A stretch of DNA of 64,000 nucleotides from a virus: UHGV virus genome UHGV-0038496, one strand, 5' to 3'. The stretch's first letter is position 1; each line of letters begins with the position of its first letter. The notes under the pieces were generated by a model. That model was not told where the DNA came from. It made no database searches and saw nothing but the letters and a program-made list of their open reading frames with translations. Position numbers and translations under genes: made by a program. Positions 5,117-64,000 of this stretch are shown one piece after another.

Positions 5117-5132
5117 AAGATTACCCTCAAGT

Positions 5133-5164: not shown

Positions 5165-5216
5165 TAGTTATGCTCTATAGATTATTGTAACACATTCATC
5201 TAAAATTGGCAACTAC

Positions 5217-10206: not shown

Positions 10207-10282
10207 TGGCACCCCGTACAGGACTCGAACCTGTAACCTATGGCTTAGAAGGCCACTGTTCTTCCATTTGAACTAACGGGGC
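10207..10282 (-). tRNA. tRNA-Arg (anticodon TCT)
   Basis: 76 nt cloverleaf on minus strand: acceptor GCCCCGT/ACGGGGT (G1-U72), D stem GTTC/GAAC, anticodon stem GTGGC/GCCAT with loop CTTCTAA, T arm ACAGG-TTCGAGT-CCTGT, encoded CCA. Confidence 0.8.
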
Positions 10283-50525: not shown

Positions 50526-50921
50526 TTCATACAATCAGGGGCAAATATCCCAGACTTACATTTGAGGTATTAGGCAGGCGAAACGCGACTCCTTCTCATA
50601 ATGCGAATGATTCTCAAATATCACGGCTGCTTTCGTTATTGATAGCCTGGGCCTTGCAGCTATTGGCCTGGTTATTGCACGGTAGTTACTCACAGCGATT
50701 AATAGTTACACACAGAGATTATAGGGTTGACTGTTCACGCCCTCATTGTGTGGGGTTGAATAATAACATGCGTTACAGTTTTCCACAGGAGCATTTAAGT
50801 TGATGATAAGCCTTCTCATTTGGGAATAATTATTACTTCGTATTGTTCATCATACGTAACACCAGTTATACGCACTTATGATCATCTGTACAGTAGTTCC
50901 ACACAAAGGTAGGACACTGGG

Positions 50922-50961
50922 TTATCCACAGGTGGCAGGGTTATCCACAGACTTATCCACA
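50922..50961 (+). promoter_or_regulatory. three tandem DnaA boxes (TTATCCACA)
   Basis: Exact consensus 9-mers at 50922-50930, 50941-50949, 50953-50961, same orientation. Confidence 0.6.
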
Positions 50962-51299
50962 GCTCACGTATGACGCTACGCGGAATAATCACAGGTCAAA
51001 CGACAGGAAACGAAAGGAAACGAAAACAATCGAAAGAAGATTAATTGCGGTTTATTACAGCACGAAAAGATTAATCATTGCAATAGTTAGCCTGCTATTA
51101 ATTATATTTACAGGGGTGACAGTTACGTCATGTTACAGATGACTGGGCATCATATTGCACTGGCACACTACCATACCAGCTATATAACATGCCCCACAGA
51201 TGCATCTTATAACTGGTCTGACCACTTACGCATAAAAAATCGTTGACAAAAAGAGCGAAATTTGTTAGGCATACTTTCCCCATACTTCGGTCATACTCC

Positions 51300-51480
51300 C
51301 CCCACAGTTTACAGTTTGAAAAGCCCATAATCACACCTCAGGCCTCTGGCCTTCGAGGTAACGCAGTTACGAGACACGCATTGAAATCATAACATCCCAT
51401 GACTGTTTACACAGCGTAGCACTGAGGCCCCGCCGATTTTACACATCTGACAGTTTACACGCATGACAGTTTACGCCTTG
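51300..51480. repeat. ACAGTTTAC(A/G)C repeat family
   Basis: At least five copies (about 51308, 51315, 51402, 51449, 51465). Confidence 0.45.
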
Positions 51481-51596
51481 ATTTACAAGGAAATAGTTGC
51501 GACATGTAACTACCGCAAGACGGTATAGTTGCGCCGTGTTATCGTTGCATGTGTAACTTTACCGTGAAGCCATAGGCTGAATGTGTAACATTACTT

Positions 51597-51928
51597 CAGC
51601 GTTATTGTCACAGATCTGATAGTTTGCACTCTACTCTTAACCAGTGTTATAGTAACACCTGTTACTACTACTTTTGACATAATAACGCTGGGAAAACGTA
51701 ACCGTTTTTGATTATTAACATGTAATAACCCAGCGTTACCATAACAATTTTTATTGTTATTGGAGGACATAATAACGCTGAGGATTATTACATGATAATT
51801 TATGATATAATTTCGCTGGCTATGCCAGGTGGACTACGTCCACCCCGTAGGGCGTTATCATAAATTAGCGAGATAATAATGCTGGATAATAACACGGGGG
51901 TGTTATTGTCACTCAGCGTTATTATGTC
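51597..51928. repeat. iteron family GACATAATAACGCTG (direct and inverted copies)
   Basis: Direct copies at 51677, 51767, variant 51872; inverted CAGCGTTATT at about 51597, 51732, 51914. Confidence 0.5.
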
Positions 51929-52651
51929 GCTCCCTCCGGTCGCGCCATGTTATCGTTGCATAATGTGATTATTGCATTCGCAAATTATTATTTATCTTAT
52001 TTTACTTTATGCAATTTATATATTTTCATTGATTGTAATTTTATTTATTTTATATTTTATTGTATCTCATAATCTAATTATATTACTAATATTATACTAT
52101 ATAGATTATTGAGATACAGAATAATCACCGCCTGAAAGTATATTAATCCCACAGCAGAATAGTCACTGCATGAAATAATGTGGGGTGGGATAGTCACACC
52201 TCGGCATGACTGCCTTGCGGAATAATCACCATATTTACCACACCTGCCAGGTTGTTGAGAATATTTCTCATATGTTAGCTATGCACTAATATTGCATAAT
52301 TAAAACATACCTATCAGATGCATCTTATCGTGACGCTACGTGAAAAATAGAATTTTGCGCCTATAGTTATACCCGATTTTTCAAAAAATGGACTTTATAA
52401 CTCACTGTTTTATAAAGATTTATAGTTGTTGACACAGCCATATAAAATGTGCATCAGCCGAAAAGTGTGAGATACTTCACAAAATGCCCTACATTTGACA
52501 GCCGAAAACTGAAAAAACTTAAAAACTATGTATGCAAATACAGCTATTTTACTGTGTGGTTAATTTTTAGGCATTTTATTTTATGCATTGTTTGAATACC
52601 GGATTCACAGCTTGCCCATGAAGCTACGCTGAATAAATCACTATATTACAG

Positions 52652-52683
52652 ACAACAAAAAGGCCGCTTATTTGCGGCCCCTT
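52652..52683 (-). terminator. rho-independent terminator
   Basis: AAGGGGCCGCAAATAAGCGGCCTTTTTG on minus strand after gene ending at 52701. Confidence 0.6.
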
Positions 52684-52700
52684 ATTATTTCGTTGATAAA

Positions 52701-53120
52701 TTATAGCGCTTCGTATATTTCATAGATTCGATTTGCAAGGTCGTTACGGTAGCGGAATTTTTCGTCACGCTTGATCATTAAATCTTTATAGCCATACTCC
52801 TTAAGCACTTCATTAACTTTATGGCGGCATACCTGCATATTGTCCTGAGCGTCACCAATAAACTTGTTGCTGTGGTGCATTGCTTTAATTTCTTCTTCCA
52901 GGACCAGGGCAACTACCCGGACCGGATCAAGCTGGTAGGCGTTAACATCCATGCGGCACTGTAGGCGGCTTTTAACATCGTTTACCGGATATACTGCAAC
53001 CTCTTCCCCGTCCACGTTGACAATAACCAGCTTGTCGCCGATCTCGAATCCTTTAGCCGCTGGACCGTGGCAAAAAGCGTTATCAAAACTATATGCGGGA
53101 TTGTTTGATTCAATGTTCAT
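52701..53120 (-). CDS. hypothetical protein
   Basis: 139 aa, GAGGAAAA RBS. Confidence 0.5.
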   Translation of the reverse strand: MNIESNNPAYSFDNAFCHGPAAKGFEIGDKLVIVNVDGEEVAVYPVNDVKSRLQCRMDVNAYQLDPVRVVALVLEEEIKAMHHSNKFIGDAQDNMQVCRHKVNEVLKEYGYKDLMIKRDEKFRYRNDLANRIYEIYEAL

Positions 53121-53177
53121 GGTGTTTTCCTCTTCGTTGTGTCTTAGTTGGGCCTTTCGGCCCTTGCAATTATCTTA

Positions 53178-53450
53178 TTACTTGATGCGGCAAAATTCAA
53201 GCGTTTTTAATTGATAATCTTCTTCGGCTTGCATCACCACGCAATTGATCATGTGGTCGGCGTTATCGAATCCACATTTCACAGCGAAATCATCGGCCCC
53301 GCCTTTGTGGTCATGTTCTGCGTTCATAGCCTCTACAAAATGGTACTCAAGATTATTCAAGTAAGGGCTAGATGTGCCGTCTTCTTTTTCAATAAGATCC
53401 CAGATAGCATTAAAACGTTTTTCAGTCGCCTTTTTAATCCACCCTTTCAT
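53178..53450 (-). CDS. hypothetical protein
   Basis: 90 aa, AAGGGG RBS. Confidence 0.45.
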   Translation of the reverse strand: MKGWIKKATEKRFNAIWDLIEKEDGTSSPYLNNLEYHFVEAMNAEHDHKGGADDFAVKCGFDNADHMINCVVMQAEEDYQLKTLEFCRIK

Positions 53451-53729
53451 AATTTTGCCCCTTATTGTGTGAGATATTTACTTCTTCCATTTTCATTATA
53501 GCCTATTTGTGGATTGATGCAAGATTGTTTTTTAGTTACAACATTCCAACCCCCTCCAACCGGACCGGACCGCCGTCACGGCCTGGACCGGACCACAGGA
53601 AACGCAACAGGAAGCATTTTAGGGGCATGAAAAAGGAGGCTATGCACTTGCAAGGCCTCCTCCAGTTTATCCCGCCTGTGTGGCGATTATGTGGGCTATT
53701 TTTGATTTGCAGCTTTCGAGTATAGTCGG

Positions 53730-54026
53730 CTATTCTTCAACAGGGAAAACATCGTTCACGAAAGCGATGATCGCACCCTGGACCAGGTAGCGCGGGAAGA
53801 TGGCTTGATCCCCTGCCTCCTGGTGACCGTCTTCAAAGAGGCGATAGATCACCAGATAACTTTTTTCGTCAACCTTTTGGATCTCGACCTCCAGCCATCG
53901 ATCATGGTCATGGTCATCACGGAATGCCATCACCTGGCCGCCGTTTTTGTTGGCAATCTCAACCATTACAGCGGCATTGTCGATCATGCCGTCAAAGAAG
54001 AATAAACCGTTTGCAGGGATAAACAT
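53730..54026 (-). CDS. hypothetical protein
   Basis: Start at ATG after AAGGAG (MFIPANG...); His/Asp-rich. Confidence 0.45.
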   Translation of the reverse strand: MFIPANGLFFFDGMIDNAAVMVEIANKNGGQVMAFRDDHDHDRWLEVEIQKVDEKSYLVIYRLFEDGHQEAGDQAIFPRYLVQGAIIAFVNDVFPVEE

Positions 54027-54085
54027 AATAATCACTCCTTTCGATTTGGTGGATAGCTGGCGGGGTATCGTCCCCGCCTGGTTGC

Positions 54086-54376
54086 TTATTTGTTTTCTTT
54101 AATCATTTTGCCGATATACTCGATCACTGCTTTCAGCTGGCGGCGATCCTTGATCCAGGCTGGGAGGTCTTCCAGGTAGCTGCATAAGCTGCCACGGAAA
54201 AACATTTCTTCACCCTGTAAGTGATACAGTACTAAAGGCTCGCATTCATTTTCAAGATCCCAGATCCAGACTACGGGAACGGCCTTTTCTTCCACCTCGT
54301 TCCATGCTTCTTCAATCGTTACGTCCACACCGCGATTATTAGCAAAGTTAATTAGTTTTTTATCGATGATGCTCAT
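54086..54376 (-). CDS. hypothetical protein
   Basis: 96 aa, GGGAGG RBS. Confidence 0.45.
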   Translation of the reverse strand: MSIIDKKLINFANNRGVDVTIEEAWNEVEEKAVPVVWIWDLENECEPLVLYHLQGEEMFFRGSLCSYLEDLPAWIKDRRQLKAVIEYIGKMIKENK

Positions 54377-54453
54377 TTTATTTTCCTCCCTTCCTGCTCT
54401 TTATGATTAGTTTAATACCCTGGGGACTGCATTGCAAGCCCCTATCTTAAAAT

Positions 54454-54618
54454 TTACATAATTACCGCCTTTTTGCCTTCGGCTATTGCGATCCGGTAAA
54501 CTTCCATTGCTCGCATCCAGTCGCCTCCCTCGTACATCAAACGATAATTGCCGTTTTCCAACACTTCATAAATGGCATAGGCGGGAGCGCCATAATCTTT
54601 TACTAAATCTGCGTTCAT
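54454..54618 (-). CDS. hypothetical small protein
   Basis: 54 aa ORF below track cutoff; GGGGGAAAA upstream. Confidence 0.35.
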   Translation of the reverse strand: MNADLVKDYGAPAYAIYEVLENGNYRLMYEGGDWMRAMEVYRIAIAEGKKAVIM

Positions 54619-54631
54619 GATGTTTTCCCCC

Positions 54632-54724
54632 TTAAGCTACCACGATTGCCACAGCTGCCACTACACCTATTACAACTGCCGCCATAGTCAGAGCTAACAC
54701 ACTGCCTACGAATAAAGTTGCCAT
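54632..54724 (-). CDS. hypothetical small hydrophobic peptide
   Basis: 30 aa all-hydrophobic ORF after GGGGAGG. Confidence 0.3.
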   Translation of the reverse strand: MATLFVGSVLALTMAAVVIGVVAAVAIVVA

Positions 54725-54928
54725 AATCTTTTCCTCCCCTTCGTGTTACTGTTTACTGCCTTCACCTATAGAATACAGTATGGGGGGCAGTAGTCAACAC
54801 CTTTTGTAAAAAAAAATCCTGGTAGTCGTTGGCATCGGCGGCACTGACTAACCAGGATGGGCAAACATCAAAAATAAGGCATCAAACGGGGCGTAGGACG
54901 CAAAAAACTTAGTTCCCTTTGTACTTCT

Positions 54929-55282
54929 TCATAGCTGGATAATATAGCCCTTAGAATCGTATAGACGGCGTTCCAGCGCTTCATAATAAAAACCCGCAAG
55001 GCTAAAAAGGCAGTGATTAGCACGTAAAACTTCCGCTGCATAAGCCGGATCCGCTTCCATTCGTTTGATTAGAATATTCTGCCACGCCAGGCGACGGATC
55101 TCACCGTTAACGTTACGTTTGATCAAAGTGTCTACTTTGTAGAGTCGTGCGGCTTGAGCGGCTTTTTTCGCTTTTACCCGCAAGGCCTCTTTTTCGTAGG
55201 CTATCACCGCGCCGATGGCCTCATCCTGGGCTTTTGCTGCCAATAGGTCGAAAGTTAACAGGCTAACGCTTGCACGTTTCAT
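54929..55282 (-). CDS. hypothetical protein
   Basis: 117 aa ORF. Confidence 0.45.
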   Translation of the reverse strand: MKRASVSLLTFDLLAAKAQDEAIGAVIAYEKEALRVKAKKAAQAARLYKVDTLIKRNVNGEIRRLAWQNILIKRMEADPAYAAEVLRANHCLFSLAGFYYEALERRLYDSKGYIIQL

Positions 55283-55308
55283 AGTAATTTACCTCTTATG
55301 CTGTTGCA

Positions 55309-55536
55309 TTATTTATTATCATTCCGGTAAATAACTTTTCCGTTCCGGTCCATCAGCACGCCGATTAATCCGTGGCGTTCGTGGTAGTATTTTTCCATTT
55401 TGAAGATTAAAAAATCTTCTGCTTTATCATATTCATAGCAAGAAACGATATAATCAGGGCGAAAATATATAAAATGGTTAGCATGTGGATTTTTTTCTTT
55501 TGCCTGATTAAATGCTTTGCTGTCAACGATAATCAT
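55309..55536 (-). CDS. hypothetical protein
   Basis: Start at ATG after GGGGAG (MIIVDSK...). Confidence 0.45.
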   Translation of the reverse strand: MIIVDSKAFNQAKEKNPHANHFIYFRPDYIVSCYEYDKAEDFLIFKMEKYYHERHGLIGVLMDRNGKVIYRNDNK

Positions 55537-55553
55537 GATCTTTACTCCCCTTG

Positions 55554-55802
55554 TCAACCGTGCAATGCCTGCACATTGAAAGCGCCATAGATAGGATCAG
55601 CCGGAACATCAATTTTGTATTTTTCGCATTTAAAGACGATATAAACATAGTCTTTTTTGTCCTGCCTGATCGCACGTTCGACCATTTTCCCATTGTGCAC
55701 AAATACAACGTAACCGCTTGCGATGTACTGGTTAATGGCGACAGGTATCATAGTACGGCGAACGTTAGTACCCTTGTCGATTAAAGCGCTTAGATTTTTC
55801 AT
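55554..55802 (-). CDS. hypothetical protein
   Basis: 82 aa, GAGGAG RBS. Confidence 0.45.
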   Translation of the reverse strand: MKNLSALIDKGTNVRRTMIPVAINQYIASGYVVFVHNGKMVERAIRQDKKDYVYIVFKCEKYKIDVPADPIYGAFNVQALHG

Positions 55803-55843
55803 TTTGCTTACTCCTCTTTTCTTGTTGGACTTAAGGCCCTGCC

Positions 55844-56023
55844 TTACAGGGCCATTTTTAACAATTCATGCATGTCGAAATTTTCAAGGTTTTTAGCCAG
55901 GTAGACGGCTTTTTCTGCCACCTCCTCATCGATATCGTCATCGGGGAGAAGGTCCAGAGCATTTTCACGTTCACGCATTGCAACATTTACCAGGTTGTTA
56001 ACTTTTTTGATATTCCGTTTCAT
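55844..56023 (-). CDS. hypothetical small protein
   Basis: 59 aa ORF below track cutoff; AAGAGGAG RBS. Confidence 0.4.
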   Translation of the reverse strand: MKRNIKKVNNLVNVAMRERENALDLLPDDDIDEEVAEKAVYLAKNLENFDMHELLKMAL

Positions 56024-56100
56024 GATTTAGTACTCCTCTTATTTGGTGTGGTACTTCTTTTATTTACATCTTACAACAACCTGGCAGCTTGTCAACCTTT

Positions 56101-56631
56101 TTATTTCATCATTTTGCGAATTTTGTTAGCCATTGCCGGGTTATCTAGTACAAGGTTGTAGAGGTCTTTAAAATTCTCGGCGGCATCCTCATAACCATTC
56201 AGGCCATAGCCTTTTACCATTTTGTTAAAACCTGCTTTATCTTCCTCTATAACTTCCTCTTTTTCTTTGAAAATTAATTCGCCGTTATCATCAACCAGGT
56301 TGGCCCCATTGTCAAAAACCAGATTCCCTTTTTCCCCTTTATAAACATGGTCACGGATCACGACCTCTTTTAAAGCCTCCTGTATAACATATTTTGCATC
56401 ATTTGCACAATTGCGATCCGCCTTTTTCAACCAGGCCCCTTTTTCCTTGATATCCGCATCAGGATTAAAGGCGACCATAGGGGCAACAACTTCCCCGGCG
56501 CAATTCATTATAATTTCTTTCACATAGACGGGATTGATATGCTCAGGGGCTTCAACTTTAAAGCCGCCAGCGTTTACATTCGCACCGATAACCATCGCCA
56601 GGGCAGCTAAAACATATTTGAATGCTTTCAT
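56101..56631 (-). CDS. secreted/periplasmic protein (signal peptide)
   Basis: Start at MKAFKYVLAALAMVIGANVNA after AGAGGA; hydrophobic signal-like N-terminus, no lipobox Cys. Confidence 0.5.
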   Translation of the reverse strand: MKAFKYVLAALAMVIGANVNAGGFKVEAPEHINPVYVKEIIMNCAGEVVAPMVAFNPDADIKEKGAWLKKADRNCANDAKYVIQEALKEVVIRDHVYKGEKGNLVFDNGANLVDDNGELIFKEKEEVIEEDKAGFNKMVKGYGLNGYEDAAENFKDLYNLVLDNPAMANKIRKMMK

Positions 56632-56711
56632 GATTTTTTCCTCTTTCAAGTGGTTAATACTGCTTTCAGTTTTATAATATACTATCCTGGCAAGGTGTCA
56701 ACACTTTTATC

Positions 56712-56897
56712 TTATTTTGCTTCTCTTTCTCTTCGTGCCAGGTACTTACACCGGGCCAGGGCTAGATCGAAATCTGCGTAAGCGCTATCACAAGTAGAAT
56801 GTGTTAAACCTTTTACCATCACCTGGTAAACTTCCGGCCTAACCTCAAGGATCCAGTAGTTGCCCTCTTCGTAAAGTATTTGAGATTCTTTAATCAT
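56712..56897 (-). CDS. hypothetical protein
   Basis: 61 aa, AAGGAG RBS. Confidence 0.45.
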   Translation of the reverse strand: MIKESQILYEEGNYWILEVRPEVYQVMVKGLTHSTCDSAYADFDLALARCKYLARREREAK

Positions 56898-56945
56898 GGT
56901 GTTTACTCCTTTTAGTGCTTTATGTTGTGTTTTTATGTTCTGTCG

Positions 56946-57212
56946 TTATTTATGAGCGCCTTTTACGCCAACCAGGCGATTATATTCTAAGTGCTCAACA
57001 ATTAACCAATCTTTGAAATCGCCGTCACGGTTTAACAGCCGCCAATCTTTGTTGATATTGTATTTATAGCCATAGCCGCAATTTAACTTAGTAGGATGCA
57101 CCGCTTTCGCGTTGTGTGCTTCCAGGATGCTCAGGGCTTTTTTAAGAACGTTTGCGGGAGTATTTTTTTGCATTTTAACGTTCTTGATACCTTTAACGTC
57201 GATCATTTTCAT
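56946..57212 (-). CDS. hypothetical protein
   Basis: Start at ATG (MKMIDVK...) after AAAGGTGA. Confidence 0.4.
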   Translation of the reverse strand: MKMIDVKGIKNVKMQKNTPANVLKKALSILEAHNAKAVHPTKLNCGYGYKYNINKDWRLLNRDGDFKDWLIVEHLEYNRLVGVKGAHK

Positions 57213-57308
57213 GATGGTCACCTTTTTGTGTTTTGTTAGTCTTAACTACTTCTTTTAATTTAATTGTATATCTTTTAGATTCTGTGTCAACTACTTTTTT
57301 CTAACTTT

Positions 57309-57518
57309 TTACCCCTCCCTGGCAAGGCGTTCAAGCCGGATAACCATTCTTGCGACCGCCCTCCAATCCGCATCATTAAATTCATCCATAGGGGCCGGAT
57401 TGTTCATTACTTCCAGGTTGTTGATATTGACGTGATACGGTACAGCTTTTACAGGTGCGGCCTTTGCTGCCGCTTTTCTTGCTTTCGCCGCTTTGCGTTT
57501 ATCTCTACCCATGCCCAT
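57309..57518 (-). CDS. hypothetical protein (basic N-terminus)
   Basis: 69 aa, GAGGAG RBS, KRKAAKARKAAAKAA tract. Confidence 0.45.
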   Translation of the reverse strand: MGMGRDKRKAAKARKAAAKAAPVKAVPYHVNINNLEVMNNPAPMDEFNDADWRAVARMVIRLERLAREG

Positions 57519-57611
57519 GATTTGTTACTCCTCTGGTTGTTGGCCTTACTTCTTTCTTCATCTTTATAGTAAGAAAAAGGCCTGCACATTGCAAGCCTTT
57601 ATGAAGATTTT

Positions 57612-57893
57612 TTAAAACAACGCATGTAGCGGGTAACGGTTACCAGGGTAATAAATCACCTTGATCATTTCGTCCGGCAGGAAGAAGTTAAACCATTCGC
57701 CAGTGTTATCGTCTGGATCTTCGTCCGCATACATGAAGAAGTAGTCTACAGTTTCCTCGCCAGGGGCCTGGCCTTCGTTGTATTCTACCCTAGTTAATTT
57801 CAACGGGCGATCATTACGGATTATAACCATACCAGCCTGTAAATAACGGGCTTCAAAATTGATAACCGCGCCAGGTAATAAGTTAGGGAACAT
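57612..57893 (-). CDS. hypothetical protein
   Basis: Start at MFPNLLPG after AGAGGAG; G10 tract in 5' leader. Confidence 0.45.
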   Translation of the reverse strand: MFPNLLPGAVINFEARYLQAGMVIIRNDRPLKLTRVEYNEGQAPGEETVDYFFMYADEDPDDNTGEWFNFFLPDEMIKVIYYPGNRYPLHALF

Positions 57894-57917
57894 AATTTTA
57901 ACTCCTCTGTTGTTGGT

Positions 57918-57927
57918 GGGGGGGGGG
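57918..57927. repeat. homopolymeric G10/C10 tract
   Basis: Ten consecutive G in 5' leader of 57612-57893 gene. Confidence 0.7.
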
Positions 57928-58200
57928 TATTCCCCTTTCAAGAATAAGTATACACACAACAGACCACATTGCAAGAAAAATTTTATCAGATGATAACTAT
58001 TCTCATTTTGCAGGAGGCAACACTTTTGAGTCTGGATCGCTTCGAGGTTGGCAATAGTGGAAGCGTTGAAATCGATTTTTAGGCACCTGGCAGGGCCTGT
58101 AACGGCCTGGAATGGTGGGGGCTTTACACTTGCATATCTTGCTGGTAAATCTTGATGGCGGGGCTTACAGGAAGGATTTAAAACACAGGAGGCAGGGCCA

Positions 58201-58228
58201 TAAAAAAGGCCGCTGATTTGCGGCCCTT
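58201..58228 (-). terminator. rho-independent terminator
   Basis: AAGGGCCGCAAATCAGCGGCCTTTTTTA on minus strand. Confidence 0.6.
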
Positions 58229-58246
58229 CATAATAGTTTCACATTG

Positions 58247-58363
58247 TTATCTTTTCGCGTCGTGTTTATCGCCAGCTATACCGAAGACCTTCCAGCCTAC
58301 ACCGATCCCGATGATACAGATAAACCAGACAACCAGGGCACCAAGCCCGATCAAGATGTGCAT
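58247..58363 (-). CDS. hypothetical small membrane peptide
   Basis: 38 aa hydrophobic ORF after GAGGG, followed by terminator. Confidence 0.35.
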   Translation of the reverse strand: MHILIGLGALVVWFICIIGIGVGWKVFGIAGDKHDAKR

Positions 58364-58368
58364 TGTCG

Positions 58369-58719
58369 TTACCCTCTAAAATAATGTTTTACGATTGCAA
58401 TAATTACAGGCGCAACATAATAGACCACTGCACCCAAGACGGCCCACGGGGCCAGTTTTTTGGCGACTGGATAAATGTATTCACCGCACACATAGCACAC
58501 GATCCAGGCCAACATAATTTTAATCGGTGCATTGTAAAAGATGTTATGCACCCAATCAATATAAGCGTATGCCATACCGAAAAGCACCGCACCGATAGCG
58601 GCCCCACGGCATTTAATTTTACGGGCCGCTTTTTCGGCAGCTTCTCGATCAATGGCGTTCATCTCTGGGGCCATCTCGTTGACGTCCGGCATACGGTTTA
58701 ACAGGTCGATGATTCTCAT
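58369..58719 (-). CDS. integral membrane protein
   Basis: 116 aa, GAGGAAG RBS, three predicted hydrophobic helices. Confidence 0.5.
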   Translation of the reverse strand: MRIIDLLNRMPDVNEMAPEMNAIDREAAEKAARKIKCRGAAIGAVLFGMAYAYIDWVHNIFYNAPIKIMLAWIVCYVCGEYIYPVAKKLAPWAVLGAVVYYVAPVIIAIVKHYFRG

Positions 58720-58752
58720 TGTTTTTCTTCCTCATGGTTGTTTCCTTCTGCG

Positions 58753-58872
58753 TCAATTATAGATCGCTATAAAGTAAATGCCAACCCCCATAAGTGTTTC
58801 AATCGCCAGGATCTCACACCACGTTATCAAGTGGCTGATTGTATCATTGCAAGGTCGAGGCTTGTCTTTCAT
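58753..58872 (-). CDS. hypothetical small protein
   Basis: 39 aa ORF after AAGGGGAA. Confidence 0.3.
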   Translation of the reverse strand: MKDKPRPCNDTISHLITWCEILAIETLMGVGIYFIAIYN

Positions 58873-58933
58873 TTTCTTATTCCCCTTGTTGGTTGATGAT
58901 AGGGCCGGACTTCCGGCCCTGGTTGAAATTGTG

Positions 58934-59164
58934 TTACATGATAGTAAGTTTACGGCCTTTGATCATGATGTAACCGTGTCCAGCATTGCCCCAGATATCA
59001 ACGTAGACGCGGCGCATCCGGCCCTCGAAGTTGATCATCCAGTTAGTCGGTAATTTTTTACCGTAACCGCTTGCAGGCATTTTGGCGTTGACTGGTTTTT
59101 CAATCATGACTACATCAAAAAAGTTTTTATAGTCAAATGTTGCAACAGCTGGCATAAGGTCCAT
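58934..59164 (-). CDS. hypothetical protein
   Basis: 76 aa, AAGGGG RBS. Confidence 0.45.
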   Translation of the reverse strand: MDLMPAVATFDYKNFFDVVMIEKPVNAKMPASGYGKKLPTNWMINFEGRMRRVYVDIWGNAGHGYIMIKGRKLTIM

Positions 59165-59245
59165 GATGTTTCCCCTTCTTACTGTGTGGTTGAGTTCTCT
59201 TTATTGATGATCCACTTTCTCATCGTGGACCATCTAAAAGCTAAC

Positions 59246-59440
59246 TCATGCGGCTATTGCAATGATTCGTTCTGCTGCCTCAACCGCTTCATAGTCCAGA
59301 TTATTGTGGTGCGCTACATCCAGGAGGAAAGTTAGTGCATCTTTATAATCTTCGTAGTCGCAACGATAAGCCTCTACACCTTCAACAAGAATCGCAATTT
59401 TACCAGCTTTTTTCAGGTTTACGATGTTAATGTGTTTCAT
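59246..59440 (-). CDS. hypothetical protein
   Basis: 64 aa, AAGGAG RBS. Confidence 0.45.
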   Translation of the reverse strand: MKHINIVNLKKAGKIAILVEGVEAYRCDYEDYKDALTFLLDVAHHNNLDYEAVEAAERIIAIAA

Positions 59441-59515
59441 GATTTGTCACTCCTTTTAAATTGTTTACTGCTTTCGATTATCAGTATACTTGTTTTTTCT
59501 GATTTGTCAACCTTT

Positions 59516-59743
59516 CTAGACTTCTTCCGGTGCCGCTTTAAAGAATCCTCTAATGATCCGGCCTCCCCTTACACTTCTTGAAAAAATTGCGTCAACCTCG
59601 CGCCTGAATGCCTCTACCCAGATATCGCCCTTACTATCGCTATTCCTAACAATCCAGGCCATACGGTAGACCTTGTTATCGAAATTAATCACACCTTTAG
59701 ATGGTTTAACTCGATTCATGGGGAACTTGATAACGTTGCTCAT
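59516..59743 (-). CDS. hypothetical protein
   Basis: 75 aa, GAGGAAAATAAA-ATG. Confidence 0.45.
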   Translation of the reverse strand: MSNVIKFPMNRVKPSKGVINFDNKVYRMAWIVRNSDSKGDIWVEAFRREVDAIFSRSVRGGRIIRGFFKAAPEEV

Positions 59744-59907
59744 TTTATTTTCCTCGCTTAGTTGTTTATTTTTGTAGTGGGAGGTTTATAACCTCCCTCC
59801 TCTGTGTTTATAATGCTGCCCGTATATGATGTACCAGATGTTTAAAAGCTCGCGCCAGGTAAATTTATCATCTTCGGGCTTTTCTTTATCGTTTTTCATA
59901 CCCAACC

Positions 59908-59994
59908 TCATTTTTTGTTATTCAGACCTTTTAACATTTCTTTAATGAAATCTTCCACCCTTTCATATTCGTTTGCTTTGTAGTAGTCTTTCAT
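59908..59994 (-). CDS. hypothetical small protein
   Basis: 28 aa ORF with the same GAGGAAAATAAA-ATG context as the 59516 gene. Confidence 0.25.
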   Translation of the reverse strand: MKDYYKANEYERVEDFIKEMLKGLNNKK

Positions 59995-60300
59995 TTTATT
60001 TTCCTCGTTTTCTTTCAGCTTCCCCCGGTTTATCCGGTCCTTGTTGCCTCCCTGCATCCTTTCCTTTCAACTTTATTTTACTGCTTTGTGTTACCTTGTC
60101 AACCTTTTTTACTTCTTTCTAGTTTTAGGGCTTTTCGGCTCCCTCGGTCCTTCGGTTAGCTATGCTTCAAGGCTTTTCCTTTACCCTTCTTTTCCCGCTC
60201 CCGGAACTTTCCTTTCTGTTCCCTTTCTTCTCCTTTCGACTATAGAATACCAAACCGGGGGGCCGTGTCAATACCTTTTTCACAACTTTCTTAAAAATTT

Positions 60301-60405
60301 TTACTTCCGCATGTTGCTTAAGATAAAACCAACAACCAGGCAGCAGATAACCACAAAGGCCAGGCCCACAGCGATAAACGGATTCATCAGCATTTCAAGT
60401 AACAT
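60301..60405 (-). CDS. hypothetical small membrane peptide
   Basis: 34 aa hydrophobic ORF after GGAGG. Confidence 0.3.
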   Translation of the reverse strand: MLLEMLMNPFIAVGLAFVVICCLVVGFILSNMRK

Positions 60406-60407
60406 GA

Positions 60408-60617
60408 TCAGGCCTCCAATACCATAATTTCAAAGCGTGCGACGATAGGGCTAACGTCTACGAGGCACATCGGATCGACTACGCGATGGATAACGACTAG
60501 ATGATCATCATGCTTATCGATGTAATAATCCTCGTTATCAATTATTTCGCTTAGGTCATAATAACGGCCTTTCTCATAGCGGCCCCGTGCATCATTGGCA
60601 TAATCACAGTAGACCAT
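60408..60617 (-). CDS. hypothetical protein
   Basis: Start at ATG after AGGAGG (MVYCDYAND...). Confidence 0.45.
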   Translation of the reverse strand: MVYCDYANDARGRYEKGRYYDLSEIIDNEDYYIDKHDDHLVVIHRVVDPMCLVDVSPIVARFEIMVLEA

Positions 60618-60773
60618 TTTGCTTTCCTCCTGCTGTGTTTCTTCTTTCAATTAAAATAATACGCAGATCCTACAAGAAGTAAATAAGGTTTTACCTATTG
60701 ATTTTTGCGTTAGATGTGTTTTACAGGTTGGGGAGTGGCAAACGAAGAAAGGCCCCACCAGGGGGCCTATCGG

Positions 60774-60995
60774 TTAAATTTCGTCTGCTTTCATGCGTTC
60801 ACGCCGTGCTGCATATTTCATTTGCTGGCGTTCACGTTCAAGTAACAGGCGGCGTAAATTACGGTCGTAATAGTTGCGCCACAGTTTACCGAAGCGGCGC
60901 GGCTTGTTCAATTTGTTGTTACGCTGGCGGCGTTCCGGCAGTTCATCAGATAAATGATTGCGTTTAGTGATTTTTTCAAAGTTTACCATGTTCAT
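60774..60995 (-). CDS. hypothetical Arg-rich protein (possible nucleic-acid binding)
   Basis: 73 aa, about 25 percent Arg/Lys; AGGAGC RBS. Confidence 0.45.
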   Translation of the reverse strand: MNMVNFEKITKRNHLSDELPERRQRNNKLNKPRRFGKLWRNYYDRNLRRLLLERERQQMKYAARRERMKADEI

Positions 60996-61009
60996 AATCG
61001 GCGCTCCTG

Positions 61010-61348
61010 TTACTCGTTATCGTCGTTTTCTTCTGCTGCAATATTTGCCGCTACTGCTTTAATAAATTTTTTCGCGTCACCGTTGCGGCCCCACAGGTCA
61101 ACGATTAAAAATCCTGCCTGCTTTATCTTATTCGTGTACTCCAGCAAGTTGTAAGCCGGGATCGGCGACGGCGTTACATATTGTTTCCCGTGTCGGTCCT
61201 GGTACTTGATAACATAATCAGCACCCGGATCAATATCCCACGGATTCACCCGAAAAGCCTGGCACCTGGCGTAATAACTTTGATTTCTTACTTTGTTCCA
61301 GACTACCCCGATTGCAATAAATGTAAGTATGCACGTCACTAGATCCAT
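61010..61348 (-). CDS. membrane-anchored protein
   Basis: Start at MDLVTCILTFIAIGVVW after AAGAGGA; one N-terminal transmembrane helix. Confidence 0.45.
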   Translation of the reverse strand: MDLVTCILTFIAIGVVWNKVRNQSYYARCQAFRVNPWDIDPGADYVIKYQDRHGKQYVTPSPIPAYNLLEYTNKIKQAGFLIVDLWGRNGDAKKFIKAVAANIAAEENDDNE

Positions 61349-61435
61349 AGATTTTTCCTCTTTGCTATTGTGTGGGCATAATGTCACCTCCTCCTGGTTG
61401 GATAGGGGGCCGGACTCCCGGCCCCGCCTGGTATG

Positions 61436-61684
61436 TTATCCTAACATTTTAAAATAGTTGACGTTCAAAATTTTTTCAATATCGTCAACCGCTTTGATAT
61501 GCATGAAAGCAATCAATTTACCATCGATGCGGATAACCGGGCGGCCCAGGTGATAACCTTTAATCATACGCGCTTTTACTTTTCCACCTGCTCCCCCTTC
61601 ACGCCACCAAATGGCTTTTCCGTTGCTGTAATACCAATCAGCTTTTACCAGGTCCACCGCTGCAAAGTTAATTAATTTAGCCAT
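61436..61684 (-). CDS. hypothetical protein
   Basis: 82 aa, GAGAGGAG RBS. Confidence 0.45.
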   Translation of the reverse strand: MAKLINFAAVDLVKADWYYSNGKAIWWREGGAGGKVKARMIKGYHLGRPVIRIDGKLIAFMHIKAVDDIEKILNVNYFKMLG

Positions 61685-61761
61685 TGCGTAACTCCTCTCT
61701 TATTGTGGTTACACTAAATTATCTTTATGGATGGCCCCGCCAGGGCCATCTAAAAGGCAAC

Positions 61762-62100
61762 TTAGTTACGTAACGCTTCCTCTACTTCCTGCAATTCTGC
61801 TTCAAGGTCGGCCAATTCGTCGCACAAATCACAATAGTTTGCGTCATCGCTTACGTCTACGCTGTCTACATAGTCATTCAATCCGCAACGATAAGCAATC
61901 GGATCCAATTCGCGTAAGATTCTAGACGGTAAAAATTCGCAACCGCCTACCACTACCGCACCGCCTTCGTCTAGTACTTCATTGTAGTCATCTTCATAAT
62001 CAGCCGGATCGATTTCAAAATTCTCGATTTTATTGTTCAGTTGTTCGATAGCTGCAACCAGAGCGGCACGACGTGCAATCATTTCGACGTTAGCGTTCAT
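61762..62100 (-). CDS. hypothetical highly acidic protein
   Basis: 112 aa, Asp/Glu-rich; AGAGGAGA RBS. Confidence 0.5.
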   Translation of the reverse strand: MNANVEMIARRAALVAAIEQLNNKIENFEIDPADYEDDYNEVLDEGGAVVVGGCEFLPSRILRELDPIAYRCGLNDYVDSVDVSDDANYCDLCDELADLEAELQEVEEALRN

Positions 62101-62137
62101 AATGTTTTCTCCTCTGTTGTTACTTATTACTGTGGTT

Positions 62138-62166
62138 AGTTTACTTTATTGATGGCCCCGTGTCAA
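62138..62166 (-). promoter_or_regulatory. sigma70-like promoter within inverted-repeat module
   Basis: Minus strand TTGACA-17-TAAACT; -35 flanked by inverted repeat GATGGCC (62151-62157) / GGCCATC (62177-62183). Confidence 0.5.
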
Positions 62167-62198
62167 TACTTTTTGAGGCCATCTAAAAGCAAGCTATT

Positions 62199-62558
62199 TT
62201 ATTTGTATGCTAGTTCCACATAAAACCGCGCCATCAGTTCAAACCATTCTTCAATGTAACGTTCTTTAGTATCTTCTTTAGTTTTTTCATCAATGATCCC
62301 GAACTCACGCAGGCGGTTTAAAATGTCATCGTTGCAAAAATCGATATCAACACCGCTAGGAAGACCAGCCAGCCAGTCAGCCATAGCCTTCACACGATTG
62401 CCATTGAAGCGACGGATATAATAGCCGTCGAAATGCTCAGCTTCAAAGCGTGCTTTCAGTTCCTCAACGTCGTTGTCGTGTTCCATGTCATCAAAGTTCA
62501 AGCTATCAACTACATACTCACGAATTGCGTTAGCCATAGCCTTATTGATGCGTTTCAT
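62199..62558 (-). CDS. hypothetical protein
   Basis: 119 aa, AAGAGGAAAA RBS. Confidence 0.5.
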   Translation of the reverse strand: MKRINKAMANAIREYVVDSLNFDDMEHDNDVEELKARFEAEHFDGYYIRRFNGNRVKAMADWLAGLPSGVDIDFCNDDILNRLREFGIIDEKTKEDTKERYIEEWFELMARFYVELAYK

Positions 62559-62650
62559 AATATTTTCCTCTTTGTGATTTACTAATTACTTCTTTCAGTT
62601 TTAAGTTTACTTATTTTTGCTACCGTGTCAACTAATTTTTTGAATTTATT

Positions 62651-62743
62651 TTACATCATTACACGAAAGACCAACATAACCAGGTAGACCAGTACCATAA
62701 TCATAACATCGCGGCGGATCTGATAGCGAGAATAATTTTTCAT
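62651..62743 (-). CDS. hypothetical small membrane peptide
   Basis: 30 aa ORF after GAAGGGGAAA. Confidence 0.3.
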   Translation of the reverse strand: MKNYSRYQIRRDVMIMVLVYLVMLVFRVMM

Positions 62744-62774
62744 GATTGTTTCCCCTTCGTTGTGTGGATTTTTA

Positions 62775-62803
62775 GGTTACTTTATAGATGGCCCGGTGTC
62801 AAT
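62775..62803 (-). promoter_or_regulatory. sigma70-like promoter within inverted-repeat module
   Basis: Minus strand TTGACA-17-TAACCT; inverted repeat GATGGCC (62788-62794) / GGCCATC (62810-62816) around -35. Confidence 0.45.
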
Positions 62804-62825
62804 ATCCAGGCCATCGAAAAACAAC

Positions 62826-63236
62826 CTATAAGCTCATATAGTCACGATGTGCAATCATCCATGCAGCGTCTTTGTTTTCACAATAGCCGACGTGGCGAGA
62901 CTCCCCATCATAACGATAGATAACCTGGTAAACTGCTTCCCCTCTAAGGTCCAGGACGTGGCGCACTTCGTAACGTTTGCAACGTTTAACTTGTGCGATA
63001 CGTGCCCCGAAAATTAGTTTTACCAGTTCTTTCCAATGGCGACGGGCATCAGTTAAAGACACCACACTAAACCATGCTTGCCGCTCGCCATCAGCATTAA
63101 AAGCGCGAACATGGTAGCAACCGTGGGCCTTAAACAGATCCACCATTTCACGATCCCGCCCCTCTACCATTTGAACATATCCGCAAGCTAAAGCGAACGC
63201 AGTTAAACCATTTGCATTACGGAAAGTAGTTTTCAT
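62826..63236 (-). CDS. hypothetical protein
   Basis: 136 aa, CAGGAGAAAGG RBS; Cys/His-containing. Confidence 0.5.
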   Translation of the reverse strand: MKTTFRNANGLTAFALACGYVQMVEGRDREMVDLFKAHGCYHVRAFNADGERQAWFSVVSLTDARRHWKELVKLIFGARIAQVKRCKRYEVRHVLDLRGEAVYQVIYRYDGESRHVGYCENKDAAWMIAHRDYMSL

Positions 63237-63315
63237 GATCCTTTCTCCTGTGTTTTATTAATCTCGTTTACTGCTTTCATTGTTAAGTATACTTGTTTTT
63301 TATCGCCTGTCAACT

Positions 63316-63426
63316 CTATTTTTCATCTTTTTTAAAGAAATCGATCAGGCCTTTGATAACTGCCGCCAGGTGCAAGCCCAGCAAAAAGAAGGCATAGCCT
63401 ACAATGATTGCCGCGATAATGTTCAT
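63316..63426 (-). CDS. hypothetical small membrane peptide
   Basis: 36 aa ORF after CAGGAGG. Confidence 0.3.
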   Translation of the reverse strand: MNIIAAIIVGYAFFLLGLHLAAVIKGLIDFFKKDEK

Positions 63427-63500
63427 AATGTTGCCTCCTGTTGTGTGAATAGTAACTTTATTCATGGGGCCGTTGCTACAGCCCCAGGGTAAAGCGGCTA

Positions 63501-63746
63501 TTAGTGCGGCATTCCTACCATAGCGGCGCGGATGTTAGTTTTATTGTAAGGCACTCCATCAGGCGTATGAGTGATCCCCTCTTCTTTCAAGCGGTAAACC
63601 ATTAAATCAGCTGCCGCGTCTTTATTGCCACACTCATTAATCAGGCCCATCGCTAAAAACCATAAACCTTCGTCATTGTTGATCCAAAGTGCGACGTTCC
63701 ATTGATTGTAATTTTTCCAACCGTTATAACCTTTATTGCCTTTCAT
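63501..63746 (-). CDS. hypothetical protein
   Basis: 81 aa, AAGAGGA RBS, Trp/Asn-rich. Confidence 0.45.
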   Translation of the reverse strand: MKGNKGYNGWKNYNQWNVALWINNDEGLWFLAMGLINECGNKDAAADLMVYRLKEEGITHTPDGVPYNKTNIRAAMVGMPH

Positions 63747-63802
63747 AATTTTATCCTCTTTAGTTTTTGCCTCTGGGGAAATTTCTTTCCCTTTCGGTTT
63801 AT

Positions 63803-63830
63803 ATACTACATCTTTATTCTACCGTGTCAA
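63803..63830 (-). promoter_or_regulatory. sigma70-like promoter
   Basis: Minus strand TTGACA-16-TAGTAT; -35 overlaps stop codon of upstream partial gene. Confidence 0.45.
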
Positions 63831-64000
63831 CATTTTTTAAAGAATTTTTCTACCGTGATATCTTTCCCAGCAGGTTTAGCCACTTTCAGAATTTTATCAT
63901 GCACCGGGCGCCCGAAAGAATAAGCGCCATACACAGTAAGCCAATAATCCCCGTTAGGCTGTACTATTACCGCTGCATATGGTACGCCTTTCTCGTTATC
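63827..64000 (-). CDS. hypothetical protein, 5' end beyond window
   Basis: Open frame from window edge to TGA at 63827-63829; not in track because partial. Confidence 0.35.
   Translation of the reverse strand, partial: DNEKGVPYAAVIVQPNGDYWLTVYGAYSFGRPVHDKILKVAKPAGKDITVEKFFKKC

Follow-up and report, generated by a model that had tools for sequence, protein, structure and literature searches.

Promoter early stem-loops (PeSLs) of T4-like phages combine an AT-rich tract, a near-consensus sigma-70 early promoter, a stem-loop and a Shine-Dalgarno (SD) sequence with its ATG; the stem-loop often lies between the -35 and -10 hexamers or over the -10, and degraded copies occur (PMC2839356; PMC4122927). 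They cluster in the hyperplastic regions of these phages, beside indels of ORFan genes (PMC2839356; PMC4122927), and the crossovers of PeSL mini-circles, sequenced after inverse polymerase chain reaction, fall between the -10 hexamer and the SD or ATG (PMC2839356). Here we compare with this system a block of short minus-strand open reading frames (ORFs) at positions 52,701-64,000 of UHGV virus genome UHGV-0038496, of which a stretch of 64,000 nucleotides (nt), the window, was analysed. We consider it probable that this block is an accessory, hyperplastic gene array, driven by host-type promoters and probably expressed early, in which modular expression cassettes swap ORFs. As a phage region, a hyperplastic accessory array is of a known kind; modularity of the PeSL type seems not to have been reported before for an rV5-like phage.

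By descent, the nearest described phages are the rV5-like Vequintavirinae. In the complete Vequintavirus genomes Murica, JLBYU08, Bas57 and Bas53, a same-strand unit opens with helicase, primase and DNA polymerase genes, runs on through about 55 small hypothetical genes and terminates at the orthologs of g33 and g34 (genes of the block are labelled g00 to g34, numbered from the window end at 64,000 down to 52,701); beyond the g34 ortholog come about 2.5 kb free of ORFs and then a second, converging small-gene array. The CB7 paper describes sigma-70 promoters with upstream promoter (UP) elements that are concentrated in a short-ORF “likely early gene region” of Certrevirus, and the BASEL paper found the Vequintavirinae to be exceptionally susceptible to restriction-modification (RM) systems. 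A HIDEN-SEQ transposon map of Bas54 on K-12 showed the counterpart of the block (bas54_~0094-0134) to be almost wholly non-essential, with exceptions that include the essential bas54_0110 and the intermediate bas54_0134, and no insertions were tolerated in the counterpart of the ORF-free region (10.1101/2025.11.20.689424). In the same study, bas54_0106, 0123, 0126, 0127, 0132, 0133 and 0134 were significantly depleted on a clinical isolate compared with K-12, bas54_0108 was depleted on isolate CFE303 according to the methods, and the two validated anti-defence genes, 0063 and 0140, lie outside the counterpart block (10.1101/2025.11.20.689424).

Genome and position of the block

The window is 99.99% identical to part of a metagenomic contig of 140,706 bp (ENA ERZ27287477 k141_617802, the source contig) and groups with the rV5-like phages by DNA as well as protein comparison. 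Nucleotide identity to Vequintavirus genomes is about 76% over about one third of the core region, and only 6-8% of the block aligns to them at the DNA level. The genome that carries the block appears, from these comparisons, to be that of an uncultured rV5-like (Vequintavirinae-related), E. coli-type myophage of 140.7 kb. The window has the Vequintavirus layout, with same-strand small genes leading to g33 and g34 and then to an ORF-free region between converging arrays, and g33 and g34 are 78% and 91% identical to their Vequintavirus orthologs. A contig locus in IMG/VR (L003) has the block in collinear order, with about 88% nt identity; it is the sole close relative used below, both for rearrangement junctions and for selection.

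A first-pass annotation of the window had closed the block at 64,000, which proves to be no boundary: on the part of the source contig that reaches beyond this position (L011, positions 1-9746) the array extends for at least a further 10 kb, with about 25 more small same-strand genes and 8 further consensus promoters. The block is the promoter-distal 11 kb of an accessory-gene array of at least 21 kb.

Genes of the array

The block contains 34 complete minus-strand genes at 52,701-63,746, encoding 30-176 amino acids (aa), and a 35th, partial gene at 63,827-64,000, which agrees with the figure of about 35 given at first. An independent gene caller run on the source contig returned identical models except for three tiny ORFs that it skipped (g04, g11 and g17). 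An SD core of at least 4 nt stands 4-12 nt before the start in 31 of the 34 genes, as expected from the strong ribosome-binding sites (RBS) that had been reported for most of them, while the reported spacing of 20-120 bp needs correction to intergenic gaps of 2-353 nt. The genes are as follows (pI, isoelectric point; TM, transmembrane; dN/dS, non-synonymous relative to synonymous divergence, here against L003).

63827..64000, minus strand: g00, 3' end, truncated where the window ends; 77 aa on the source contig
63501..63746, minus strand: g01, 81 aa, Pfam DUF7249 / phrog_871; homolog in the Murica block, 58%
63316..63426, minus strand: g02, 36 aa hydrophobic peptide, AGGAGG RBS, no family
62826..63236, minus strand: g03, 136 aa, basic, phrog_16510
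62651..62743, minus strand: g04, 30 aa hydrophobic peptide; dN/dS 0.28
62199..62558, minus strand: g05, 119 aa, acidic, phrog_11100
61762..62100, minus strand: g06, 112 aa, pI 4.1, phrog_9294, homolog of bas53_0106
61436..61684, minus strand: g07, 82 aa, basic, phrog_11241; Vequintavirus homolog at another position
61010..61348, minus strand: g08, 112 aa, N-terminal TM segment, phrog_12734; 34% identical to bas53_0108
60774..60995, minus strand: g09, 73 aa, Arg-rich, pI 11.1, Pfam Phage_1_1 (T7 gp1.1-like), phrog_8176
60408..60617, minus strand: g10, 69 aa, acidic, no family
60301..60405, minus strand: g11, 34 aa TM peptide, 2 nt after g10
59908..60057, minus strand: g12, 49 aa, no family
59786..59899, minus strand: g13, 37 aa; matches the C-terminus of bas53_0133
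59516..59743, minus strand: g14, 75 aa, basic, no family; dN/dS 0.02
59246..59440, minus strand: g15, 64 aa, phrog_12347
58934..59164, minus strand: g16, 76 aa, basic, phrog_3436
58753..58872, minus strand: g17, 39 aa, phrog_13629; dN/dS 0.09
58369..58719, minus strand: g18, 116 aa multi-TM membrane protein, no family
58247..58363, minus strand: g19, 38 aa TM peptide; dN/dS 0.07
57612..57893, minus strand: g20, 93 aa, acidic, pI 4.3, phrog_12610
57309..57518, minus strand: g21, 69 aa, Lys/Ala-rich basic N-terminus
56946..57212, minus strand: g22, 88 aa, Pfam ParE_like toxin domain, phrog_1525
56712..56897, minus strand: g23, 61 aa, phrog_20712
56101..56631, minus strand: g24, 176 aa, N-terminal signal peptide
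55844..56023, minus strand: g25, 59 aa, acidic, no family
55554..55802, minus strand: g26, 82 aa, phrog_14550; transposed in L003
55309..55536, minus strand: g27, 75 aa, no family
54929..55282, minus strand: g28, 117 aa, basic, phrog_8549
54632..54724, minus strand: g29, 30 aa TM peptide; not in L003 (precise ORF-sized indel)
54454..54618, minus strand: g30, 54 aa, acidic, no family
54086..54376, minus strand: g31, 96 aa, acidic, phrog_6147
53730..54026, minus strand: g32, 98 aa, acidic, pI 4.4, phrog_7366; dN/dS 0.01
53178..53450, minus strand: g33, 90 aa, phrog_7287; 78% identical to the Vequintavirus ortholog
52701..53120, minus strand: g34, 139 aa, phrog_12277, terminal anchor gene; 91% identical to bas53_0130

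Such a list could in principle be made up largely of spurious or decaying ORFan junk that is carried passively between promoters, the tiny ORFs not being genes at all. This account would fit the 13 of 34 products without a PHROG family, the five ORFs of only 30-38 aa, a coding density of just 74% and the three ORFs passed over by the automatic gene caller. It is at odds with the pattern of divergence from L003: in all 24 genes that align to that locus without gaps, dN/dS lies between 0.01 and 0.28 (the pooled pN/pS, the non-synonymous proportion over the synonymous one, is 0.11), this set includes the tiny g04 (30 aa), g17 (39 aa) and g19 (38 aa), and none of the 24 has an internal stop in its L003 copy. 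The SD motifs are also properly spaced, and g17 has both a PHROG family and a Vequintavirus homolog. Low dN/dS together with intact reading frames shows that the array is protein-coding and under purifying selection, and we regard passively carried junk as a very improbable description of it. A few tiny ORFs, for example g02, g11 and g29, which are not among the testable genes, are uncertain as genes.

Promoters, hairpins and terminators

Promoters were counted as matches to the full pattern TTGACA-N16/17-TAnnnT on each strand and compared with shuffled sequence. On the minus strand of the block the pattern turns up 11 times, where shuffles give 0.12 +/- 0.34 (maximum 2); the plus strand lacks it. 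This amounts to about one consensus promoter per kb; seven additional near-consensus promoters bring the total to about 18, and six intrinsic terminators bear out the earlier report of terminators after several genes. The totals of generic scans are not significant (promoter-like 36 versus 27.5 +/- 6; terminator-like 18 versus 12.1 +/- 3.9), hence the use of strand-specific full-pattern counts: the signal lies in high-scoring, strand-specific, intergenic sites. The element directly upstream is a consensus TTGACA promoter for 10 genes, a promoter with one mismatch in the -35 for 7 and a hairpin only for 7, while the remaining 10 are tightly coupled or follow a short plain spacer. Individual promoters, which had been ascribed to most genes, were found for about half of them (17 of 34). 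Read in this way, the array would split into roughly 15 short transcription units. The elements are as follows.

63803..63830, minus strand: consensus promoter of g01, TTGACA-16-TAGTAT
63286..63313, minus strand: consensus promoter of g03, then GAAAGCAGTA box
62604..62631, minus strand: consensus promoter of g05, then GAAAGAAGTA box
60244..60271, minus strand: consensus promoter of a 141-nt ORF-free purine-rich leader (60103-60243)
60075..60102, minus strand: consensus promoter of g12
59483..59510, minus strand: consensus promoter of g15, then GAAAGCAGTA box
57263..57290, minus strand: consensus promoter of g22
56674..56701, minus strand: consensus promoter of g24, then GAAAGCAGTA box
56068..56095, minus strand: consensus promoter of g25; right-hand junction of the g24 replacement
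60656..60683, minus strand: near-consensus promoter of g10, TTTACT/TATTAT
57947..57974, minus strand: near-consensus promoter of g20, TTGCAA/TATACT
57566..57600, minus strand: composite terminator/promoter between g20 and g21, 11-bp hairpin and U-run, loop TTGCAA, TACTAT 17 nt downstream
54770..54797, minus strand: near-consensus promoter of g29, TTGACT/TATTCT
54409..54442, minus strand: near-consensus promoter of g31, hairpin with TTGCAA loop and TAAACT
53495..53522, minus strand: near-consensus promoter of g33, TTGCAT/TATAAT
53141..53169, minus strand: weak promoter-like element and hairpin of g34, TTGCAA / GGGCC hairpin / TAAGAC
62774..62822, minus strand: Type B cassette of g04, -35 TTGACA in the loop, -18.5 kcal/mol
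62138..62190, minus strand: Type B cassette of g06, -17.4 kcal/mol, z -4.3; shares 91% identity with that of g04 over 33 nt
61716..61758, minus strand: Type B variant without -35, of g07; matches the Bas53 copy before the g08 homolog
59193..59241, minus strand: Type B variant without -35, of g16; stem kept by different sequence
63449..63494, minus strand: Type B-like hairpin and AATAAAGT, of g02
61395..61431, minus strand: Type C GC hairpin CCAGGCGGGGCC...CTATCCAACCA, of g08
58890..58922, minus strand: Type C GC hairpin of g17
54047..54081, minus strand: Type C GC hairpin of g32
55827..55855, minus strand: GC hairpin across the g25 stop codon, upstream of g26
60740..60768, minus strand: intrinsic terminator after g09
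58200..58234, minus strand: strong intrinsic terminator after g19
54808..54856, minus strand: terminator-like hairpin and T9 after g28
53627..53663, minus strand: terminator-like hairpin and T5 after g32
52654..52688, minus strand: strong bidirectional terminator closing the array after g34

These elements fall into recurring types. Type A consists of an A-rich tract, TTGACA, 16 nt, TAnnnT, about 6 nt and GAAAG(C/A)AGTA, and its copies form repeat families of 42-49 nt. The GAAAGnAGTA box occurs six times in the block (56060-63280) against 0.17 expected, and also in L011; it lies at or just after the predicted transcription start and hardly occurs in Bas53 or in the rest of the window. It is possibly an initial transcribed sequence, a leader element or the site of a regulator. 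Type B has the form GCTTTTAGATGGcC-loop-GGcCATCnATAAAG(T/A)AAaCT, with a GC stem of 9-10 bp within a second short stem; the five copies fold at -16.6 to -18.5 kcal/mol (z to -4.7), two of them carry the -35 TTGACA in the loop and three lack a -35. Type C is either a GC hairpin followed by CTATCCAaCCA (g08, g17 and g32) or a hairpin with TTGCAA in the loop and then a -10-like hexamer (g21, g31 and g34).

Terminators and hairpins together fold at -15 to -22 kcal/mol (z to -4.7). Hairpins trailed by a U-run, the intrinsic terminators, stand after g09, g19, g20, g28, g32 and g34, and those after g19 and g34 are copies of each other with 88% identity. The SD and start contexts are themselves members of repeat families (D4-D6, D10-D12 and D17). 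A search of Rfam over 47-64 kb returned only a sub-threshold Trp-leader match. We judge it unlikely that the hairpins are RNase III sites like those of T7 early mRNA, as their stems of only 7-11 bp are presumably too short. The two tandem strong promoters at 60271 and 60102 flank the purine-rich ORF-free stretch at 60103-60243 (minus strand), which is conserved in L003 and has no Rfam match; it could be a small RNA or a long leader.

The host sigma-70 consensus and the A-rich, UP-like tracts make early expression the natural expectation for this array. In Bas53, 8 of the 10 plus-strand promoter sites of the 80-100 kb region lie in the counterpart of the block, and the structural 50 kb are almost without such sites. 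Elsewhere in the window the same consensus pattern occurs 22 times on the plus strand at 12-48 kb and 7 times on the minus strand at 7.6-12 kb; sigma-70-type promoters therefore span all non-structural regions and not the block alone.

Variability and rearrangement junctions

The block is the most variable part of the window. Homologs in the corresponding block of Murica, JLBYU08 or Bas53 exist for only 13 of the 34 genes, some of them reordered, and the other 21 are absent there. The fraction of ORFs shared with Bas53 falls from 82% (1-12 kb) to 63% (12-30 kb), 62% (30-49 kb) and 32% in the block; for ORFs below 150 aa only, the corresponding values are 100%, 43%, 60% and 33%.

Five discrete differences from L003 form the junction set. 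In L003, g26 is located between g22 and g23, an extra ORF of 75 aa stands between g27 and g28, and g29 is absent; in each of these three cases both junctions fall within the segment that contains the SD and start codon. The fourth difference is the replacement of g24 by an unrelated protein (L003 positions 6685-7134), in which the swap runs from about codon 8 to the UP/-35 of the next promoter: promoter, RBS and the first ~8 codons are common to both genes and the mature parts are unrelated, which looks like an exported domain exchanged behind a constant export leader. In the fifth, the spacer between g09 and g10 holds a segment of 32 nt here and one of 114 nt in L003. For the five taken together, the junctions lie in SD/start or promoter sequence.

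Conservation of the Type B cassette extends across genera, and it is found in several copies: near-identical ones of about 47 nt stand before three unrelated genes in Bas53 and before two in JLBYU08. The g07 homolog of Bas53 lies after the g09 homolog, and the Bas53 cassette of the g08 homolog, a variant without a -35, matches the one that precedes g07 here; compared with Bas53, the space from that cassette to g08 is thus occupied here by g07 and a Type C hairpin. The junctions and the distribution of the cassettes lead us to infer recombination of the PeSL type. Separately, the 30 C-terminal residues of bas53_0133, which belongs to the opposite, converging array, are matched by g13.

We picture the array as working in the following way. 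Unmodified host RNA polymerase would transcribe it directly after DNA entry, as the promoter type implies for early genes, and the hairpins may attenuate read-through, stabilise the mRNAs or both. The repeated regulatory sequences would act as short homologies at which recombination swaps whole ORFs, and an ORF swapped in could be expressed as soon as it has landed, in the manner suggested for PeSL cassettes in T4-like phages. The array's products would be small factors that interact with the host, namely membrane peptides, a single secreted protein, a toxin-like protein with a RelE/ParE fold and acidic proteins with coiled coils, and they may be dispensable on a permissive laboratory host and adaptive on particular hosts, some of them probably countering host defences or taking over host processes.

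Protein content and possible host interaction

All 34 proteins were compared with Pfam, PHROGs, NCBIfam, PADLOC and the sequences of the PDB. A PHROG family was found for 21 of them, every one of “unknown function”, and in Pfam only g01 (DUF7249), g09 (T7 gene 1.1 protein) and g22 (ParE-like toxin domain) have matches; against NCBIfam, PADLOC and the PDB sequences nothing was found. Across these libraries no known anti-defence, defence, enzyme or structural family was recognised among the 34. Homologs of Ocr, Gp0.7, Gp2, A1/A2, Alc, Ndd, Arn, Dmd and others were likewise absent from these scans. As candidates for known anti-defence or host-takeover proteins the products were rejected, the scans having yielded unknown-function PHROGs, DUF7249, Phage_1_1 and ParE_like only.

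The composition described by the first-pass annotation is confirmed throughout: there are tiny hydrophobic peptides (g02, g04, g11, g19 and g29), one protein with a signal peptide (g24), one rich in Arg (g09, pI 11.1), highly acidic proteins (g06, g20 and g32, with pI 4.1, 4.3 and 4.4) and membrane proteins (g08 and g18), and none shows a recognisable enzymatic motif. Nor do the ORFs match known structural proteins. The conclusion drawn from this composition, an early region of host shut-off, anti-restriction and superinfection-exclusion functions, fares less evenly, as the promoter type and the hypervariable accessory content under purifying selection agree with it whereas no gene matches a known anti-defence, host shut-off or superinfection-exclusion protein or any other known inhibitor. 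For the block as a whole, an anti-defence or host-takeover role is plausible but unproven.

In its strong form, this earlier view makes the block an arsenal in which most members are inhibitors of these three kinds. Early-type promoters, small acidic, basic and membrane proteins without an enzymatic family and the RelE/ParE-fold toxin-like g22 are what one would expect of such an arsenal, and on clinical isolates of E. coli Bas54 shows depletion of its g06 and g34 orthologs. By gene order, g06 would be the homolog of bas54_0108, g08 that of bas54_0110 and g34 the ortholog of bas54_0134. The two validated anti-defence genes elsewhere in Bas54, whose type was unknown or unexpected, demonstrate that genes of this kind exist among its hypothetical ORFs. 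These two, 0063 and 0140, are however not in the counterpart of the block, none of the 34 products matches an anti-defence family, a PADLOC model or a solved structure, and the host factor behind a conditional phenotype need not be a defence system. The exceptional RM sensitivity of the Vequintavirinae argues against a broad anti-restriction arsenal, and with the g08 ortholog essential in Bas54, not every gene can be accessory. A block composed mostly of inhibitors is, in our view, a tentative possibility and a doubtful one.

The placement of bas54_0140 within the counterpart of the block was considered and ruled out by the gene table, which puts it across the ORF-free region in the converging array. 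The window does contain a weak match to this validated anti-DS-28 gene (via bas53_0136), with 31% identity over 39 aa at 47,620-47,736 on the plus strand.

A narrower alternative concerns the hydrophobic subset (g02, g04, g08, g11, g17-g19, g24 and g29), which might be a membrane and periplasm module for superinfection exclusion or lysis timing and not for takeover. The subset has at least one predicted TM segment or signal peptide, g17, g18 and g19 are tightly linked and closed by a strong terminator, and the Vequintavirus block contains genes annotated as “membrane protein” and “putative holin”. Yet the proteins lack homology to the Imm, Sp, Cor, Llp and holin families, the annotated holin is non-essential in Bas54, and endolysin and spanins are encoded elsewhere. 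Such a module would account for no more than roughly one gene in four, and it does not conflict with the accessory-array explanation; we think it unlikely that the subset forms one.

Three products deserve closer attention. The 88-aa g22 scores 43.6 bits against PF24732, the ParE-like toxin domain (cut-off 24.4); its family is tiny, as in 1.8 billion cluster representatives only nine relatives are detectable, each of them a match to PF24732, and R58, L59, H74 and Y77 are invariant. Its neighbours g21 and g23 belong to no antitoxin family in PHROGs or Pfam, and sequence searches found no relative with a solved structure. This orphan RelE/ParE-fold protein could be an early host shut-off toxin. 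A more specific assignment as a RelE/YoeB-type RNase was dropped, as a profile search of the PDB gave nothing credible and the Pfam assignment alone stands.

Members of the g06 family are 41-94% identical and share the invariant core S..L..DPIAYRCGL.DYVD within the conserved core PSRILxELDPIAYRCGLNDYVDS. The model of g06 (predicted local distance difference test, pLDDT, 94.4) is an antiparallel coiled coil with a small beta-hairpin and a helical tip. The third, g34, is found only in rV5-like phages, at 82% identity or more, and its model is less reliable. The Arg-rich g09 scores 29.7 bits against PF08200 (cut-off 21), and its Murica ortholog is annotated as “T7 gp1.1-like”.

That the block holds at least one undescribed, host-specific counter-defence or takeover factor and that, jointly, the ~47-nt cassette is a mobile element shuffling ORFs across the Vequintavirinae is a combination which we hold to be a real prospect, although not the expected outcome. 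The best candidates in it would be the g06 family, whose Bas54 ortholog is needed on a clinical isolate, and the conserved terminal g34.

The adjoining ORF-free region

Between the two converging gene arrays, positions 50200-52700 are free of ORFs. Three perfect DnaA boxes, TTATCCACA, stand at 50922, 50941 and 50953, the whole window having four against 0.69 expected, and iteron-like repeats are present (GACATAATAACGCTG four times plus inverted copies, TGACAGTTTACAC four times); the GC content drops to 25% at 52000-52199. The triplet of DnaA boxes is kept in L003 and not in Bas53. These features make 50200-52700 a probable replication origin.

This neighbourhood raises the possibility that the block mainly serves replication, or the function and regulation of the origin. 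Its place is downstream of the replication module and on that module's strand, the Bas53 array following the helicase, primase and DNA polymerase genes; it adjoins the DnaA boxes, iterons and AT-rich tract of a region whose Bas54 counterpart is insertion-free; and Bas54 cannot freely dispense with its g08 ortholog, which is essential, or its g34 ortholog, which is intermediate. Nearly all other counterpart genes are non-essential, though, gene turnover is far too fast for core replication functions, and the products include no DNA-binding or replication family. We therefore rate a replication role for the block as improbable.

Several observations concern the wider genome. Inside the array, about 1.3-2.4 kb past the window end (L011 7325-8472), there is a second ORF-free gap of about 1.1 kb that bears repeated ACTATAAATCACCGTGCGTTACTATTT-like iterons and GC-rich hairpins, and the array genes of L011 include an NT5C-family nucleotidase and a weak match to the Macro domain. 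The class I and class III ribonucleotide reductases and the thymidylate synthase of the Bas53 array are apparently absent from this phage (window 1-49400 compared with Bas53), and the window has one tRNA (Arg-TCT, 10207-10282) compared with six in Bas53.

Weighing the evidence

A number of points weigh against an early, modular accessory array as the explanation of the block. Only about half of the genes have a promoter; nine plain Type A promoters lack the stem-loop that defines a PeSL, only about five to nine of the ~18 promoters carrying one; and the Type B and Type C hairpins are without U-tracts. Recombination is represented by only five rearrangements against one close relative, and the breakpoints in the SD region could partly reflect selection for expressible products and not a recombination site. 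A transcriptome or data on expression timing for the Vequintavirinae group was not found in the literature searched. Bas54 genes were matched to those of the window through its sibling Bas53 (JohannBauhin) by identical gene lengths and order, the supplementary sheet for the clinical isolate names CFE303 in its title and strain 311 in its command line (10.1101/2025.11.20.689424), and the depleted run bas54_0123-0134 is contiguous, so that it may partly be due to polarity and not to many independent functions. Fold searches, which the first-pass annotation had proposed for each ORF and which were run for g06 and g34, were uninformative: g06 matched generic coiled coils or uncharacterised phage proteins, and the matches of g34 were equally generic. 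The functional reading of that annotation is reasonable for a subset of genes and is demonstrated here for none.

The analysis delimits the fastest-evolving, host-polymerase-driven part of one rV5-like genome and indicates that the tiny genes there are real. New genes are perhaps gained ready to express through modules of promoter, hairpin and ribosome site, a mechanism documented so far only in T4-like phages; if this is true, the system of ~47-nt cassettes would be convergent with the PeSLs of T4. Coliphages of the rV5 group, which are large and lytic and have a broad host range, are often considered for therapy, yet about two thirds of their genes are uncharacterised. The analysis also yields a ranked shortlist for functional screens: g06, g34, g22, the membrane trio g17-g19 and the secreted g24, tied to the transposon phenotypes of the orthologs. 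The block is a sensible region in which to seek new host-manipulating proteins. Should the ordinary reading alone hold, its value would be that of a known type of region with a thorough annotation.

Comparison with known systems

By analogy, the block resembles the T7 class I, T5 first-step-transfer and T4 immediate-early regions, which code for host-takeover and anti-defence proteins, with their strong host-type promoters and many small non-essential, host-directed proteins, and g09 falls in the T7 gene 1.1 family. As in the RelE/ParE superfamily, g22 has a PF24732 match, the R...H..Y pattern and the typical size of 88 aa; it differs from RelE/ParE systems in having no recognisable adjacent antitoxin and no sequence relative of solved structure.

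The likeness to the early region of Vequintavirinae and Certrevirus and to bas54_~0094-0134 extends to position, strand logic, terminal genes, the ORF-free neighbour, the UP-element promoter type, the Type B cassette and 13 common genes. The block differs from that of Vequintavirus in the 21 of 34 genes absent there, in several local rearrangements and in the GAAAGnAGTA box after the -10, which is specific to this lineage.

The PeSLs of T4-like phages are a close parallel in design. No report of PeSL-type cassettes outside T4-like phages was found in the literature searched. The phage lineage here is Vequintavirinae-like and not T4-like, the cassette sequences differ, and the clearest breakpoints fall in the SD/start region itself. 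The claim is for this reason that the cassettes work like PeSLs and not that the two share a common descent. Both systems have the AT-rich tract with a near-consensus sigma-70 promoter; the cassettes of the block end 3' in the SD and start codon of the downstream gene; a stable stem-loop adjoins or overlaps the promoter elements in Type B (five copies, two with the -35 in the loop) and in the TTGCAA-loop hairpins of g21, g31 and g34, and is missing from the nine plain Type A promoters; degraded and partial copies occur, and there are ORF-sized indels between close relatives. As with PeSLs, the cassettes are found in the most variable, ORFan-rich region of the window and flank different genes in Bas53.

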